NCBI GenBank assembly: GCA_963788095.1
Contig: CAWBFP010000034.1
Location: 25,540 to 89,539 of the forward strand
Length of the DNA: 64,000 nucleotides
Source of the DNA: an uncultured Alphaproteobacteria bacterium
GTDB taxonomy: Bacteria; Pseudomonadota; Alphaproteobacteria; Rhizobiales; Xanthobacteraceae
Reading direction: 5' to 3'
Shown: positions 19,201 through 62,556 of the stretch, piece by piece
Numbering within the stretch: position 1 is the stretch's first letter
Layout of the letters: the number at the start of each line of letters is the position of its first letter
Translations under genes and position numbers: made by a program
The notes under the pieces: generated by a model
Databases searched by the model: none
What the model was told of the DNA's origin: nothing
What the model saw: the letters and a program-made list of their open reading frames with translations, nothing else

Positions 19201-19236
19201 GTTCCCTCTCCCTCGCCCGCGGGGAGAGGGAGCCGG
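19201..19236 (+). terminator. GC-rich hairpin CCCTCTCCC-N9-GGGGAGAGGG immediately after SBP stop (candidate U-tract-less intrinsic terminator/attenuator)
   Basis: Palindrome read in sequence 16 nt after stop codon; no T-run. Confidence 0.35.
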
Positions 19237-53675: not shown

Positions 53676-53895
53676 CGATTGTCGCTTGCGTTGAGTCACC
53701 TCTCTCCGCCTGCGGGGAGAGGTCGGCGAGCGTAGCGAGCCGGGTGAGGGGCCTTGGTCGGGGACCGTGCCTGGCCGCAAGCCCCCTCACCCGGATCGTC
53801 TCGCTCGCGCTCGACGATCCGACCTCTCCCCGCAAGCGGGGAGAGGTGGCGCAGCGGCGCTCGCCGTGCATCAACACCACAGGGAAATATTGCAG
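53676..53895. repeat. composite palindromic repeat element (5' module attgtcgcttgcg..cacctctc(c/t)cc..ggggagagg; internal extra palindrome ccgggtgagggg..ccccctcacccgg; 3' module gacctctccccgcaagcggggagaggtggcgcagcggcgct..caccac.gggaaat)
   Basis: Shares 5' and 3' modules with the 85-bp element at 59393-59480; located immediately 3' of a + strand gene. Confidence 0.7.
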
Positions 53896-57125: not shown

Positions 57126-57309
57126 GGGCGGAAGTCTGTTCCCGGAGGGCCAACTGAAGACGGGGGCACGTCCGGTCGTCTAGCCTCTTTCGCGGCTGAT
57201 TGTCCATCGGCCGCGGGCGCCGCAAGGCGGCGCCTTCACCGCATATTTACCCGGCATCCGGCTTATGGAATCAAATGCCTTGACGCGGTCCGCCCGCCTT
57301 GAGCCTGCC

Positions 57310-57669
57310 ATGACCAAGATCCTCCTCGCCGAAGACGACAACGACATGCGCCGCTTCCTGGTCAAAGCCCTGGAGCAGGCCGGCTATGCGGTGATCTCAT
57401 ACGACAACGGGCTCTCCGCCTACCACCGCCTGCGGGAGGAACCATTCGAGCTGCTGCTCACCGACATCGTAATGCCGGAGATGGACGGCATCGAGCTCGC
57501 CCGCCGGGCCTCGGAGCTCGACCCGGACATCAAGATCATGTTCATCACCGGCTTCGCGGCAGTCGCGCTCAACCCCAACTCGCAGGCCCCCAAGGACGCC
57601 AAGGTGCTCTCCAAGCCGTTCCACCTGCGCGACCTTGTGAACGAAGTGCAGAAGGTATTGGCGGCCTGA
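57310..57669 (+). CDS. cpdR: single-domain response regulator CpdR
   Basis: MTKILLAEDDNDMRRFLVKALEQAGYAVISYDNGLSAYHRLREEPFELLLTDIVMPEMDGIELARRA.. near-identical to alphaproteobacterial CpdR; phospho-Asp in LLLTDIVMP. Confidence 0.85.
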   Translation: MTKILLAEDDNDMRRFLVKALEQAGYAVISYDNGLSAYHRLREEPFELLLTDIVMPEMDGIELARRASELDPDIKIMFITGFAAVALNPNSQAPKDAKVLSKPFHLRDLVNEVQKVLAA

Positions 57670-57755: not shown

Positions 57756-57830
57756 GGGCGCGTAGCTCAGCGGGAGAGCACTACGTTGACATCGTAGGGG
57801 TCGCTGGTTCGATCCCAGCCGCGCCCACCA
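57756..57830 (+). tRNA. tRNA-Val (anticodon GAC)
   Basis: Cloverleaf folded by eye: acceptor GGGCGCG/CGCGCCC, D-arm GCTC-AGCGGGA-GAGC, anticodon stem CTACG/CGTAG with loop TTGACAT, T-arm GCTGG-TTCGATC-CCAGC, 3' ACCA encoded. Confidence 0.85.
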
Positions 57831-58073
57831 TCTTCGCGCATTGATCTTTTCTATCGATAGCTTGGCACCGCCTCGAGCGTGATGTTGCGCTTCTCGGTGA
57901 AGCGATCACGTCGGTGTGATCCTTCGAACCGCTCTCTCCCGCGCTTCAGACTAACGATCGGTCGAAATTCCCCCTCAGCGGAGGGGGACGGGGAAACGCC
58001 GGGCAATTTCACGCGCTCGGGACGCGCGAGTCTCCGGGCTCGGAATGCCGGTCAGCGAGAGGAGGCAATCATC

Positions 58074-59390
58074 ATGGGCGACGCGTCTGTTCCAATCGTG
58101 ATCGATACAAACGTCTTCATAAACATTGCTGAGGGCAACAGCCAGGCAGCGGAAGCGCTGACGCGCCATCGCAAATCTGGAACGCCACTCTACATCGCGC
58201 GCCAAGCCTATCGCGAGCTGGTGATCGAAGCGCGAACGCCGCGCCAGCGCGTCCTCTGGCGCCGGATGCTCAGGGATCTCAAGATCCACGTCGCGCCCAA
58301 GGGACCCAAGAGCCGTGACGCGGAATTTATCAAGAAAGCTCGCATTGAGATGTTGAGCGCTCGCGCGGATATCTATCAACGCAACATTGAGCGGCAGACC
58401 GTTCCTATGGCGCTGGACTACAAGCCGAGGGGTGGGCTCGAGCAATTCAAAGGCGTGAAAGGCCGCCCCCACAAGGAGGATCTCAGTCGGCGTGGCGACC
58501 TGTTCGTGGCTGCGGAAGCACACGGGTTGAAAGCCCGGTTCTGGACGCTCGACCAGAGAGCCGCCACGCGGGCTGCCCAGGTGGGCGTGCAGATCGCGCC
58601 AGAATCCAACATCCCCAGCGTCGCCGGTACGGAGGACCTCGCCGCCGCGAGGAAGCTGCTGCTCGGCACCGAGCGCAAGCAGAAGCCCCACGTCCGCGGG
58701 AAGGCGGCCGGCGGTAGCTCGACGCCGGCGACGGCAGGAGGTCGGGCTGGCGGAGCTGTGCCGAGCGCTCGGGCGACCCCCAAGATCAAGCCGTCGGCGA
58801 AGCCGGTCGCAGCGAAAAGTCCCGGCGGTCGCCTCGGGGGTGGAGGCATGGGTACCGTTTTTGCCGAAGCCATCTTCTCGGGTCGTGAAAAGCAGTACCA
58901 GGCGAACGTGCAGGCCCACGTTCAAGAGAAGCTCAAGGAAGTTGATGGCGTGGTGGCGCAGAGGTTAGCCGCACGAAAGGACGAAATCATCAAAGTGCAG
59001 CTGCGGACCGATCCCGGCGAAAAGGTGTTTGCCAATGTCAGGATACGCATTCACTGGCTGATTTGGCCGGAAGTCAAAATCGAGGACATCAATATCACGA
59101 CGAGAGAAGAAACGAGCGAGAGGAATCTTGGCGTCAAGCGCATCAAAGAGGATTACGGCGCGACGATAAATCGCGAGGTGACGGAGCACGTCTATTCGTT
59201 TGAGGTTTTCGTCTTCTCCGACGAGGAGATGAACACCTTCAGGGAGCTGACCGGCGAGTATCTGTCGCACAAGCGAAGGCTCGACATGCTTCCCTACGAT
59301 GCGATCATCGCAGAGGACGCGGACGAGGTCCTGCGGGAGATAAAGGAGAGCTTCGGGTCAGACCTCTGGTTCCTCGACAAGTCGTACTAG
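58074..59390 (+). CDS. 438-aa protein: N-terminal PIN nuclease domain, long Lys/Ala/Gly/Pro-rich low-complexity linker, ~150-aa C-terminal domain of unknown function
   Basis: PIN signature PIVIDTNVFINIAEGN (Asp in first strand) plus downstream acidic residues (YRELVIEA, DLFVAAEA, FWTLDQRA); strong RBS gagaggagg; lower GC than neighbours; directly 3' of tRNA-Val. Confidence 0.55.
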   Translation: MGDASVPIVIDTNVFINIAEGNSQAAEALTRHRKSGTPLYIARQAYRELVIEARTPRQRVLWRRMLRDLKIHVAPKGPKSRDAEFIKKARIEMLSARADIYQRNIERQTVPMALDYKPRGGLEQFKGVKGRPHKEDLSRRGDLFVAAEAHGLKARFWTLDQRAATRAAQVGVQIAPESNIPSVAGTEDLAAARKLLLGTERKQKPHVRGKAAGGSSTPATAGGRAGGAVPSARATPKIKPSAKPVAAKSPGGRLGGGGMGTVFAEAIFSGREKQYQANVQAHVQEKLKEVDGVVAQRLAARKDEIIKVQLRTDPGEKVFANVRIRIHWLIWPEVKIEDINITTREETSERNLGVKRIKEDYGATINREVTEHVYSFEVFVFSDEEMNTFRELTGEYLSHKRRLDMLPYDAIIAEDADEVLREIKESFGSDLWFLDKSY

Positions 59391-59392
59391 AG

Positions 59393-59480
59393 CAATTGTC
59401 GCTTGCGCCAAATCACCTCTCCCCAACGCGGAGAGGTGGCGCAGCGGCGCTGCCATGCACCATCACCACTGGGAAATGCG
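59393..59480. repeat. 85-bp palindromic repeat element (compact member of the family at 53676-53895)
   Basis: caattgtcgcttgcgccaaatcacctctccccaacgcggagaggtggcgcagcggcgctgccatgcaccatcaccactgggaaatg; immediately 3' of PIN gene stop. Confidence 0.7.
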
Positions 59481-59602
59481 CTAGTCTTACTGCGTAGTAC
59501 TAGCTACCGTACCATCGCCGGAGTCACGCTCGACGCGATCACGCTTTTCTTTCGAGCGGCCGCGTGCTGCGCTTGGGGCGGTTGTCGAACGCGCGCCAAG
59601 CG

Positions 59603-61045
59603 ATGAGCTCACCTCGAAGGCCGACATTCGCCGCGAGCCTGATTGCCGTCGTGCCGCCCGGACACGGGACGGCAGAGGCCGCGACCGGTCTCGACGGCTC
59701 GGCACTTTCATGGCCGTGGGCGCTGCCGTTCATCGGCATCCTGCTGTCGATTGCGGCCGGGCCGCTGTTGTTTCCCAAGCTCTGGCATCGCCACTACCCG
59801 ACGATCTGTGCGGGCTGGGTGGCGCTGCTGCTGGTGGCGCTTGCACTGGGGCATGGGCCGTCGATCGCGTGGAGCGCCTTCGTGCATGCCATGCTGGCCG
59901 AGTATCTGAGCTTCATCGTCGTGCTGTTCGCGCTCTACGTGGTGGCGGGCGGCATCCGGGTGACCGGAACGCTGCGAGGCACGCCGCTTGCGAACGCCGG
60001 CCTGCTGGCGCTCGGCACGGCCATGGCGAGCCTGGTCGGGACGACCGGCGCGGCGATGATCCTGATCCGTCCGCTGCTGCGCGCGAACGCGGGGCGCCGT
60101 CACAACCTGCACGTCGTCGTGTTCTTCATCCTGCTGGTCGCCAATATCGGCGGCGCGCTCAGCCCGCTGGGCGATCCGCCGCTGTTCGTCGGCTTCCTGC
60201 GCGGCATCGATTTCTTCTGGCCGGCGCGGCACCTGTGGATGCAGACGGCCATCACCGCCGCGTTGGTGCTCGGCATATTCCTGCTGCTCGATCTCTGGCT
60301 CGCGCGCGGCGATCGGCCGAACCTGCGCGCGTCCGATCACCCGCGTGACCCGATCCGGGTCAAGGGCGGCATCAACTTCGTGCTCACCGGCCTCATCATC
60401 GGCTGCATCCTGCTGTCGGCGGCGTGGCGTCCGGACATCGGCTTGCGCATCTTCGGCACCTGGGTGGCGCTGCAAAGTCTCGTGCGCGATGGCGCGCTCA
60501 TCCTCATTGCCTTCTTGTCGCTGTGGTTGACCCCGGAGGAGCACCGCGCAGCCAACGGGTTCACCTGGGAACCGATCCGCGAGGTCGCGATCCTGTTCGC
60601 CGGCATCTTCGTCACGATCATTCCGGTCCTGGCGGCGCTGGAAGCCGGCCCCCGCGGCCTGTTCGCGGCGCTGCTGCGGGCGATCACGCATCCCGACGGG
60701 ACCCCCAACGAGGTGGCGTATTTCTGGCTGACCGGCGCCCTTTCGGCTTTCCTCGACAATGCGCCGACATATCTCGTGTTCTTCGAGTTAGCCGGCGGCG
60801 ATCCGCAAGCCCTGATGGGGCCGCTCGCCGGCACGCTGGCGGCGATCTCGCTCGGCGCCGTCGACATGGGCGCGCTCACCTATCTCGGGAACGCACCGAA
60901 CTTCATGGTGTATGCGATCGCGACCGAGAACGGCGTCAAGATGCCGAGCTTCTTCGGTTACCTGTTGTGGGCGTCGCTGGTGCTGCTCCCGATCTTCGCC
61001 CTGCTCACGCTGCTGCCGATCGCGCCAATTCTGAGGTTGTCTTGA
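59603..61045 (+). CDS. ArsB/NhaD-superfamily permease (putative Na+/H+ antiporter-like)
   Basis: Polytopic membrane protein, conserved SAFLDNAPT motif shared with downstream paralog. Confidence 0.65.
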   Translation: MSSPRRPTFAASLIAVVPPGHGTAEAATGLDGSALSWPWALPFIGILLSIAAGPLLFPKLWHRHYPTICAGWVALLLVALALGHGPSIAWSAFVHAMLAEYLSFIVVLFALYVVAGGIRVTGTLRGTPLANAGLLALGTAMASLVGTTGAAMILIRPLLRANAGRRHNLHVVVFFILLVANIGGALSPLGDPPLFVGFLRGIDFFWPARHLWMQTAITAALVLGIFLLLDLWLARGDRPNLRASDHPRDPIRVKGGINFVLTGLIIGCILLSAAWRPDIGLRIFGTWVALQSLVRDGALILIAFLSLWLTPEEHRAANGFTWEPIREVAILFAGIFVTIIPVLAALEAGPRGLFAALLRAITHPDGTPNEVAYFWLTGALSAFLDNAPTYLVFFELAGGDPQALMGPLAGTLAAISLGAVDMGALTYLGNAPNFMVYAIATENGVKMPSFFGYLLWASLVLLPIFALLTLLPIAPILRLS

Positions 61046-61152
61046 CTAGCCGGCCGCGTTGCCGGACCTTGCCGGCCGTCAGAATGGAGGTGCGGGAATA
61101 GGCCCGGTCCGCGCGGACCGACTGCGACCGCCTTGCCGGATCGGGGACGCGC

Positions 61153-62556
61153 ATGGGCGGTCGGGCGGGTTCGAGTGTTCGCGGTGAGCCGAGCCGGGTC
61201 CAGCGCCGGGCAATCGGCTTGATAGTGGCGGCCGTCCCGAGCTTGCTCGCCGCGCCCGCCGTCGCGGCTGCCAGCCCCGGCGCGTCGGCGATCGAGCCCC
61301 TGTACTTCTTCGGGATCCCGGTCGATTTCATCCTGTTCGGGCTGACCCTGATCGGCGTCGCGGTCTTCCACCATCACACGCTCGCGGTCGCGCTCGCCGG
61401 ACTGGCCGCGATCACCGTCTACAAGCTCGCCTTCACCGGTTTCAAATTCGGCTTGGGTTTCGCGGGGCTCGGCCTCCACCTGCAGCACGAGTGGGTGATC
61501 CTGGCCAACCTGTTCCTGCTGCTGATGGGTTTTGCGCTGCTCTCCCGCCACTTCGAAAACAGCCGCGTGCCGGACGAAATGCCGGCACTGCTGCCCGACG
61601 ACTGGAAGGGCGCCTTCGCGCTGCTCGTGATCGTCGCCGTGGTGTCGAGCTTTCTCGACAATATCGCGGCCGCGTTGATCGGCGGCACGATGGCGCGTCA
61701 CGTGTTCAGGGGACGCGTCCACATCGGCTATCTGGCGGCGATCGTCGCCGCCTCGAATGCCGGCGGGTCGGGCAGCGTCGTCGGCGACACCACCACCACC
61801 ATGATGTGGATCGACGGGGTGAGCCCATTGAGCGTGCTCGAGGCTTACGTCGCGGCTTCGGTCGCCATTCTGATCTTCGGGGTACCGGCGGCGTTGCAGC
61901 AGCACCGCTATTCTCCGATCGTGCGGGAGCCGCCGCAGGGCCTGCGCATCGATTGGGTTCGCGTCGCGATCGTCGCCGCCATTCTGGTCGCCGCCATTCT
62001 GGCGAACGTGGTTGCCAACCTGCGATTCCCCGCGCTGCTCGACGCCGTCCCGGTGATCGGGCTCTCGGTGTGGGTCGTCATTCTGCTCGCCGCGCCGCTG
62101 CGACGGCCCGACTGGGAGATCATGCCCGAGACCTTCAAGGGCACGATCTTCCTGCTCGCCCTGGTGACGTCGGCCTCGATGATGCCGGTCGAGAAGCTGC
62201 CCGCCGCCTCCTGGCAGACGGCGCTCGGTCTCGGCTTCGTCTCGGCGGTGTTCGACAACATCCCGCTCACCGCGCTCGCGCTCAAGCAAGGCGGCTACGA
62301 TTGGGGCTACCTTGCCTACGCGGTCGGCTTCGGCGGCTCGATGATCTGGTTCGGCTCGTCGGCGGGCGTTGCGCTCGCCAACATGTACCCGGAAGCGAAA
62401 TCGGTCGGCCTGTGGCTGCGGCACGGCTGGCATGTCGCGGTCGCCTATGTGATCGGCTTCTTCGTCATGCTGGCGGTCGTCGGCTGGAGCCCCGATCCGC
62501 CGCATAAGAAAGCCGTCGAGCGGCTGCCGCCAACTGTGACCGTCTCCGTCACTTGA
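61153..62556 (+). CDS. ArsB/NhaD-superfamily permease, paralog of upstream gene
   Basis: SSFLDNIAAA motif, 467 aa polytopic membrane protein. Confidence 0.65.
   Translation: MGGRAGSSVRGEPSRVQRRAIGLIVAAVPSLLAAPAVAAASPGASAIEPLYFFGIPVDFILFGLTLIGVAVFHHHTLAVALAGLAAITVYKLAFTGFKFGLGFAGLGLHLQHEWVILANLFLLLMGFALLSRHFENSRVPDEMPALLPDDWKGAFALLVIVAVVSSFLDNIAAALIGGTMARHVFRGRVHIGYLAAIVAASNAGGSGSVVGDTTTTMMWIDGVSPLSVLEAYVAASVAILIFGVPAALQQHRYSPIVREPPQGLRIDWVRVAIVAAILVAAILANVVANLRFPALLDAVPVIGLSVWVVILLAAPLRRPDWEIMPETFKGTIFLLALVTSASMMPVEKLPAASWQTALGLGFVSAVFDNIPLTALALKQGGYDWGYLAYAVGFGGSMIWFGSSAGVALANMYPEAKSVGLWLRHGWHVAVAYVIGFFVMLAVVGWSPDPPHKKAVERLPPTVTVSVT

Follow-up and report, generated by a model that had tools for sequence, protein, structure and literature searches.

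The tRNA-Val locus

The stretch of DNA analysed here (the window) comprises 64,000 nucleotides of contig CAWBFP010000034.1 (assembly GCA_963788095.1), from an uncultured alphaproteobacterium of the Xanthobacteraceae, and the subject of this report is a gene on its forward strand that lies directly 3′ of a tRNA-Val(GAC) gene. The encoded protein of 438 amino acids (aa) combines a putative PIN ribonuclease head with a C-terminal module of a new type, and is probably a self-contained RNase toxin, a variant of the polymorphic toxins associated with PVC-type extracellular contractile injection systems (eCISs). The tRNA gene (57756–57830, + strand; ARAGORN, and Rfam at 67.6 bits) is the last element of an FGase-cpdR-tRNA-Val block. 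It is followed on the same strand by a non-coding leader (57831–58073) and by the coding sequence (58074–59390 in the list of open reading frames, ORFs), within which a divergent, VapC-like PIN domain (aa 1–185; 58074–58628), a low-complexity linker rich in K, A, G and P (aa ~186–258; 58629–58847) and the C-terminal module (aa ~259–438; 58848–59387; hereafter the C-module) can be delimited.

The reading frame is already open on the tRNA strand from a GTG at 57879, which would give 503 aa, and the 438-aa form begins at the ATG at 58074, 8 nucleotides downstream of an AGGAGG ribosome-binding site (58060–58065). The GC contents of the first, second and third codon positions are 0.63, 0.44 and 0.75 in the 438-aa gene, a coding pattern, and a flat 0.60, 0.62 and 0.66 in the 195-nucleotide in-frame upstream extension, which is not coding-like; the ATG at 58074 is therefore the likely start. 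The leader also contains a GC-rich hairpin (57969–57988) that appears in the RNA fold with a z-score of only −0.75.

In composition the gene stands apart from its surroundings: GC at third codon positions (GC3) is 0.749, compared with 0.874–0.896 in five neighbouring genes, and overall GC is 0.607, compared with about 0.67–0.69. The description in an earlier note made from the sequence alone, of a lower-GC 438-aa ORF with a strong ribosome-binding site immediately downstream of tRNA-Val(GAC), is thus borne out. An identical protein, labelled 'hypothetical protein', is on record from a 308-kb contig. In a second strain, represented by a metagenome contig (L001), the gene occupies the same place and differs at nine positions, of which seven are synonymous and two non-synonymous; on our own arithmetic, which assumes ~27% synonymous sites, this ratio has a binomial p of ~0.002 and points to purifying selection.

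The PIN head

Among 30 N-terminal domains that share 29–49% identity with that of the window protein, D11, D142 and D160 are invariant and E48 is conserved in at least 90%, and these residues correspond to the canonical acidic positions of PIN domains, which lie in strand 1 (D11), helix 3 (E48), strand 4 (D142) and strand 5 (D160). The same acidic residues are invariant in two further family alignments (A1 and A2). The Pfam PIN profile matches 22 of the 30 aligned family members (best E 3.6e-9), and the homologues P0014, P0017 and P0019 score above its gathering threshold across the whole profile. The predicted fold is of the VapC-like alpha/beta/alpha type, with VapC as the best structural match. 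At the level of the family, the assignment to PIN on sequence grounds is solid, as the earlier note had proposed for the N-terminal part, and the conservation of the acidic residues, on which that proposal depended, is confirmed. The predicted catalytic residues of the head are intact, and the head would act as an RNase toxin.

Several features mark the PIN domain of the window protein. Strand 1 starts at residue 7; a long insertion of ~95 residues, which is poorly modelled, separates E48 from D142; and a family-specific tail motif, ED..AR.LLG, lies at about aa 187–198, just past the PIN boundary in the linker. Comparison of the PIN profile with the PDB gave marginal matches only, to VapC15 and HARP (E 0.13–0.15). 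The AlphaFold2 (AF2) model of the full-length protein, built from three sequences, has a predicted local distance difference test score (pLDDT) of 54, and could be relied on for no more than the initial portion of the PIN domain.

The linker and the C-module

The linker has a GC content of 0.74 and a pLDDT below 50, and is disordered; the K/A/G/P-rich linker of the earlier note is recovered here with boundaries at residues ~186–258. It is longer than in the homologues, and appears in alignment A2 as an insertion specific to the window protein. At the N-terminal edge of the C-module, 15 of 36 homologues have a hydrophobic segment of 19 residues (Kyte-Doolittle at least 1.6) with a basic stretch in front of it; the corresponding junction of the window protein resembles that of a subgroup with a Gly-rich junction.

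When the last ~180 residues were modelled with a 27-sequence alignment, the C-module folded confidently (pLDDT 88; predicted template modelling score, pTM, 0.78) into a long helix, then a sheet of four long antiparallel strands, and finally two helices. Its conserved motifs are QL..D.GEKV[FY]AN, SFEV.V[FY]..EE, EY...KR and FG.D.W. A Pfam search with 27 members of the C-module gave scattered single weak matches and no consistent family, and no match was obtained with PDB sequences or with BFVD. The C-terminal part, in which no motif had been recognised, is thus a previously undescribed domain of ~180 aa with a predicted alpha/beta fold. Because the enzymatic heads that it follows are of several unrelated kinds, and no set of catalytic residues is apparent in it, the C-module is likely to be a non-catalytic accessory.

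Module architectures of the family

An exhaustive profile search with the family retrieved 227 relatives at E ≤0.001, compared with only 3, 4 and 2 matches in word-indexed protein searches; in two of the indexed searches the query included the low-complexity linker, which possibly crowded other candidates off the list. Since the family has at least 227 members, negatives from the indexed search should not be taken as a sign of rarity. Architectures were mapped with three local hidden Markov models (HMMs), for the PIN domain, the C-module and eCIS_core, on 151 proteins, namely the best 150 of the 227 and P0001, which represents the cluster of the window protein itself. The window type, PIN plus C-module, accounts for 18 of the 151. 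PIN with another or no C-terminus is found in 77, and the C-module behind other heads in 23. The remaining proteins, 33 in all, carry the eCIS_core marker, followed by PIN and another C-terminus (23), by another head and the C-module (6), or by PIN and the C-module together (4). The presence of Pfam PF13699 (eCIS_core, formerly DUF4157, the PVC-metallopeptidase) was confirmed in seven of seven predicted proteins tested, in agreement with precomputed annotations.

The heads that precede the C-module are diverse. By eye, those of P0031, P0041 and P0095 show HAE...CxxC, which is typical of nucleic-acid deaminase toxins, with no Pfam match at E ≤0.01; those of P0015, P0021 and P0054 are DUF3990-like, with weak Pfam matches below the gathering score; and yet another head resembles, again by eye, a second, more divergent PIN type. 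A second C-terminal module is likewise common to PIN-only and eCIS_core-PIN proteins. A PIN head with this second C-terminal domain, of ~300 aa, is encoded between two methyltransferase genes at L094:10001–11566, L095:568–2124 and L096:10001–11581, and the same ~300-aa domain follows eCIS_core-PIN in P0071; this gene is syntenic in the three related high-GC contigs, and its products share 85% aa identity, compared with 86–88% for the neighbours. P0003 is frameshifted in one sample (L003:10001–11290; 356 aa, with 59 aa in another frame) and intact in a near-identical contig from another sample (L086:9917–11269); either the frameshift arose in sequencing, or the gene has recently become a pseudogene. 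As judged from these sequence relationships, both modules of the window protein belong to a recombining pool of eCIS_core toxin cassettes.

Genomic context of the relatives

The link to eCISs is most direct in P0117, which has the order eCIS_core, PIN, hydrophobic helix and C-module, and which aligns with the window family (A2) over 337 columns in hhalign (probability 98.9%, E 1.4e-17). Its gene lies inside an eCIS operon (L103), between a Pvc15-like AAA ATPase gene and spike/baseplate genes, in the order sheath, gp19 tube, T4_baseplate, Pvc16_N, Pvc15-like AAA ATPase, an 85-aa ORF, P0117, a second eCIS_core gene, Phage_base_V and gp25. The gene for P0070 is also followed by another eCIS_core gene. 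The contigs of P0008 and P0012 are too short to inform on context. An examination of the homologues' distribution and context, which the earlier note had suggested, has thus led beyond its reading, to a repertoire of eCIS_core (DUF4157) toxins to which both domains belong.

Small ORFs of ~85 aa lie upstream of, and overlap, eCIS_core-PIN-C-module genes at L103:9747–10004 and L099:28–225; the two are 35% identical (E 2.7e-7) on unrelated contigs, and their products could serve the full-length toxins as chaperone, as adaptor or as immunity partner. No such ORF is present in the window. Immediately upstream of P0002, proteins of 272 and 464 aa (L002:310–1128 and L002:1770–3164) share an N-terminal domain of ~90 aa (MPLRGRVGRH..CQNW..DQQ.VIALLNR) with no Pfam match, and may represent another family of modular effector-like proteins.

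The standalone PIN plus C-module genes occur singly among unrelated, mostly housekeeping genes, with no neighbour conserved across independent loci. A six-frame HMM search of the window revealed no ORF for eCIS_core, nor was one present at any locus retrieved with it, and tblastn with the eCIS protein set of L103 detected no eCIS structural protein in the window. The PIN fold begins almost at the N-terminus (strand 1 from residue 7), and the extension in front of the ATG is non-coding; a disordered N-terminal loading domain is therefore absent. No plausible small antitoxin ORF flanks the gene upstream or downstream, and no antitoxin-sized neighbour is conserved; the absence of a cognate antitoxin that the earlier note had remarked on is therefore real within the window, as is an architecture unlike that of VapC. 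The window copy thus has neither a loader nor a partner gene, and no immunity or antitoxin gene.

Searches in other collections gave little. PHROGs and NCBIfam returned nothing significant for the window protein, the PIN motif found no phage relatives in IMG/VR, and tblastn against INPHARED phages and PLSDB plasmids gave no match. The suggestion of a defence or addiction protein is not supported: no family in PADLOC-DB 2.0 matched, even with E allowed up to 10, the gene is surrounded by housekeeping genes, and there is no sign of either a defence island or an addiction module.

The tRNA-Val site in relatives

The distribution of the gene was followed with the adjacent response regulator (134 aa, 57265–57669), which we take to be cpdR, in a scan that retained one genome per species and yielded 80 Hyphomicrobiales loci. 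The FGase-cpdR-tRNA-Val(GAC) block is widely conserved, with tRNA-Val just downstream of cpdR in 62 of the 80, and a relative of the 438-aa ORF was found in none of the 80 loci sharing the cpdR-tRNA-Val block. In the closest relative, a metagenome-assembled genome with ~85% nucleotide identity (L004), the alignment stops at 57832, two bases past the tRNA, and restarts at 61041, so that the segment without counterpart (57833–61040; delimited by blastn synteny and annotated with Pfam) contains the PIN gene and a CitMHS_2 transporter gene (59564–61045). In place of these 3.2 kb, L004 has 705 bp encoding a BrnA-family antitoxin (Pfam E 3.8e-14). The antitoxin gene (L004:6803–7036, 77 aa) has no obvious BrnT toxin gene beside it, and the same spot 3′ of tRNA-Val thus holds different toxin-related accessory genes in sister lineages.

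Comparison of the locus in relatives shows that the gene is not core, in line with what the earlier note had expected. Its view of a single-gene insertion stands in part: the gene is missing in relatives and atypical in composition, but the indel also holds the CitMHS_2 gene, whose GC3 of 0.877 is native-like. Because only the PIN gene in the variable segment looks compositionally foreign, the notion of a single-gene insertion rests on composition and not on the boundaries of the indel. Integration at a tRNA hotspot, which had also been proposed, fares worse. No 16-mer of the 3′ half of the tRNA recurs with two or fewer mismatches in 57846–61300, a separate repeat search found none either, and neither gene of the variable segment is an integrase. 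Of the features expected of a tRNA-associated island, the site thus shows presence/absence polymorphism and atypical composition, and lacks an integrase and a repeat of the tRNA 3′ end. Site-specific integration was therefore rejected, as the segment contains no att-like repeat and no integrase.

The genes immediately beyond the tRNA hardly ever recur from one locus to another. At 58 loci the contig extends far enough to take the first two ORFs, and these 115 ORFs represent 98 clusters and 106 Pfam families; the 25 most frequent families comprise ordinary metabolic and regulatory genes and include no integrase. The tRNA-Val gene is a synteny breakpoint rather than a demonstrated integrase target, and the PIN gene is a strain-variable accessory gene of atypical composition, or, more modestly, a rare accessory gene.

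Other features of the window

Right after the stop codon lies an extended stem-loop (59392–59453, + strand; free energy −35.3 kcal/mol, z-score −3.8), which corresponds to the palindromic element previously noticed. A terminator scan at this position found no T-tract terminator, and an Rfam search of the flanks found no known RNA family besides the tRNA; the stem-loop probably acts as a transcript end or stabiliser. Its core, CTCTCC..GGAGAG (59417–59435), belongs to a dispersed family of hairpins like repetitive extragenic palindromic (REP) elements. Copies of CTCTCC N5–11 GGAGAG are present at 19206–19228, 53702–53721, 53824–53845 and 59417–59435, four in the window compared with 0.05 expected by chance, and two of them are only 120 bp apart, near 53.7–53.8 kb. 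The ten largest ORFs of the window are housekeeping genes, for example those for glutamate synthase and an indolepyruvate-oxidoreductase-like protein. Beside the CitMHS_2 gene that L004 lacks, a polytopic membrane protein of 467 aa is encoded at 61153–62556; it is conserved in L004 and has no Pfam match at E ≤0.01.

Likeness to known systems

The PVC-metallopeptidase/DUF4157 polymorphic toxins are the eCIS-associated toxins (Zhang et al. 2012, PMC3482391; Geller et al. 2021, PMC8213781; Danov et al. 2024, PMC11297309), which have a constant N-terminus, variable toxin domains and long low-complexity linkers, and often no immunity gene. In AlgoCIS, cargo loading requires a disordered N-terminal domain and DUF4157 is dispensable for it; a chaperone function in trans has been put forward for DUF4157. 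Of the eCIS-associated toxins in the published set, 88% are encoded within ten genes of the operon. Polymorphic toxins diversify by way of standalone cassettes (PMC3482391). The reference survey of polymorphic toxins says explicitly that PIN nucleases do not serve in them, and no paper in the library that we searched combines 'PIN domain', 'contractile injection' and 'effector'.

The window protein resembles these toxins in that 33 of the 151 mapped proteins carry, behind eCIS_core, modules homologous to its PIN head and C-module, and the gene for one of the 33 lies in an eCIS operon; the homology between the effector region of the window family and P0117 ties it to a toxin of a genuine eCIS operon. 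Typical of the class, too, are the disordered linker, the interchangeability of the heads and the fact that no immunity gene lies alongside. It differs in that eCIS_core is found neither in the protein nor within two genes of it, and in that the loading sequence and an operon within about ten genes are missing from the window. The layout is also inverted: whereas the usual toxin has a constant N-terminus and a variable C-terminus, the constant element here is the C-terminal module behind the head.

Unlike VapC of type II VapBC systems, the protein is three times longer, has an extra domain and the ~95-residue insertion between the second and third acidic residues, and scores below threshold against the VapC entries of Pfam, NCBIfam and the PDB. 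Neither an adjacent, co-oriented gene for VapB or another antitoxin nor a single domain of ~130–150 aa matching the VapC equivalog is found.

Fused toxin-antitoxins, or single-protein abortive-infection toxins, such as CapRel(SJ46) share with the window protein an N-terminal toxin head followed by a C-terminal non-catalytic domain, with no separate antitoxin, and in the window family, too, one C-terminal module stands behind several different toxin heads. They differ in that no relationship in sequence or fold is known, the window protein has no PADLOC match and its gene lies outside defence islands, and nothing indicates that the C-module inhibits the head or senses anything.

A model for the window protein

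The explanation that we prefer, and to which we give about an even chance, is that the gene is functional and horizontally acquired, that it encodes a two-module protein of toxin type, and that it is an orphan copy, lacking a loader, drawn from the PVC/eCIS cassette pool. Acquisition with retention of function is suggested by the absence of the gene from L004 and the 80 genomes, the GC3 of 0.75 compared with 0.88, the 7:2 ratio of synonymous to non-synonymous changes and the strong ribosome-binding site. In this explanation the first module would be a divergent, metal-dependent ribonuclease of the PIN type that cleaves RNA, and the second, the ~180-aa alpha/beta accessory joined to it by the disordered linker, may determine the place or the time of the head's activity, whether through latching, through oligomerisation or through association with a membrane. 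Full-length versions of the cassette, with an N-terminal disordered region and eCIS_core, would be cargo toxins of eCISs. If the explanation holds, it is somewhat more probable than its opposite that the toxin in this host acts inside its own cell and is conditionally active, rather than being injected.

A number of findings weigh against this explanation. The window protein itself matches Pfam PIN (PF01850) with 14 bits against a cut-off of 23.6 (E 0.08), over residues 8–59 only, and NCBIfam VapC (NF047959) with 15.8 bits against a cut-off of 80, so that its assignment to PIN draws on the family, and the second half of the PIN domain is poorly modelled by AF2. The protein does not have the hydrophobic helix of most homologues (its best 19-mer scores 1.13 on the Kyte-Doolittle scale), and the linker stands in for the basic segment and the helix. 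The role proposed for the C-module is conjectural. The link to eCISs, too, is uneven: as many as 118 of the 151 mapped proteins have no eCIS_core, so that the family may be mainly intracellular and its use in eCISs secondary; only one of six eCIS_core relatives with readable context is visibly in an eCIS operon, and four are on contigs that are short or have no visible eCIS genes. For the window copy, the absence of an eCIS is read from the 64-kb window only.

Alternative explanations

The protein might be an eCIS effector loaded in trans, an alternative that we regard as rather unlikely. An eCIS elsewhere in the host genome would package the protein even though it has no loading sequence, for example by letting it ride on a DUF4157 partner, and would inject it into other cells, in which the PIN head would degrade RNA; since the targets would be distant organisms, no immunity gene would be needed. 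The homology over the whole length to a protein encoded inside an eCIS operon is consistent with this, as are the long low-complexity linker, which is typical of eCIS toxins, the frequent lack of immunity genes beside such toxins and the proposed in-trans chaperone activity of DUF4157. Trans-loading is difficult to reconcile with the missing disordered N-terminal domain, which is the element shown to be necessary for loading, and with a 64-kb window that contains no eCIS_core or eCIS structural gene, given that 88% of published toxins are encoded within ten genes of the operon. The alternative that the copy has no function of its own in the host, being a silent recombination cassette or a decaying remnant of a polymorphic toxin, appears quite improbable. 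Standalone cassettes are a source of diversity in polymorphic toxins (PMC3482391), the window copy has lost the hydrophobic helix and expanded its linker, and the homologue in L003 is frameshifted; but the window gene has its own ATG and strong ribosome-binding site, an intact reading frame with the catalytic residues present, and seven synonymous against two non-synonymous changes relative to the second strain, no full-length toxin gene lies nearby with which it could recombine, and as many as 18 clusters, with less than 50% identity between them, retain the architecture of PIN plus C-module.

The genomic setting bears on a further possibility, a housekeeping RNA-processing PIN protein of the core genome. 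The neighbours are indeed housekeeping genes, and a related PIN gene with another C-terminal domain shows synteny across three related genomes and has diverged no faster or slower than the genes beside it. The presence/absence data nevertheless contradict such a role, because the gene is absent from L004, which is ~85% identical, and from the 80 genomes with the cpdR-tRNA-Val block; with a GC3 of 0.75 compared with 0.88 and a family that is rare and patchy, we consider a core function very improbable. An ordinary type II VapBC module or a solitary VapC toxin is hardly credible at all. It would accord with a PIN fold whose best structural match is VapC, with the weak NCBIfam VapC match and with the BrnA antitoxin gene at the same site in L004, yet no antitoxin-sized ORF lies upstream or downstream, no neighbour is conserved at independent loci, and the protein has 438 aa in three regions instead of ~130 aa and scores 15.8 bits against a cut-off of 80. 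The PIN subfamily is, moreover, the one that is fused to eCIS_core, and the features tested contradict a VapBC assignment.

Implications

PIN nucleases have so far been regarded only as toxins of toxin-antitoxin systems, whereas here they are found behind eCIS_core, and in one case the gene belongs to an eCIS operon. As for the C-module, its structure is predicted with confidence, yet it is unannotated and no relative of it can be recognised; its occurrence behind several different heads suggests a general role in toxin handling. The window copy, an antitoxin-less PIN protein under purifying selection, offers a compact experimental system in which the head can be compared with the head plus the C-module.

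How producers of eCIS toxins avoid poisoning themselves when they have no immunity genes is an open question, to which the C-module is a candidate answer. In its strongest form, which we consider unlikely, this idea would make the C-module a universal cis-acting safety catch, or trigger, for unrelated heads (PIN, deaminase-like and ADP-ribosyltransferase (ART)-like). The cargo of an eCIS would then do no damage in the cell that makes it, the toxin being released only by the eCIS_core peptidase or on refolding in the target, which would explain the lack of immunity genes in these toxins. If this were true, the same latch would make loader-less copies such as the one described here into conditional RNase toxins of a single polypeptide, free of any antitoxin. 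They would be a new type of fused toxin-regulator, at home both in injected weapons and in suicide or defence within the cell, and passing from one use to the other.

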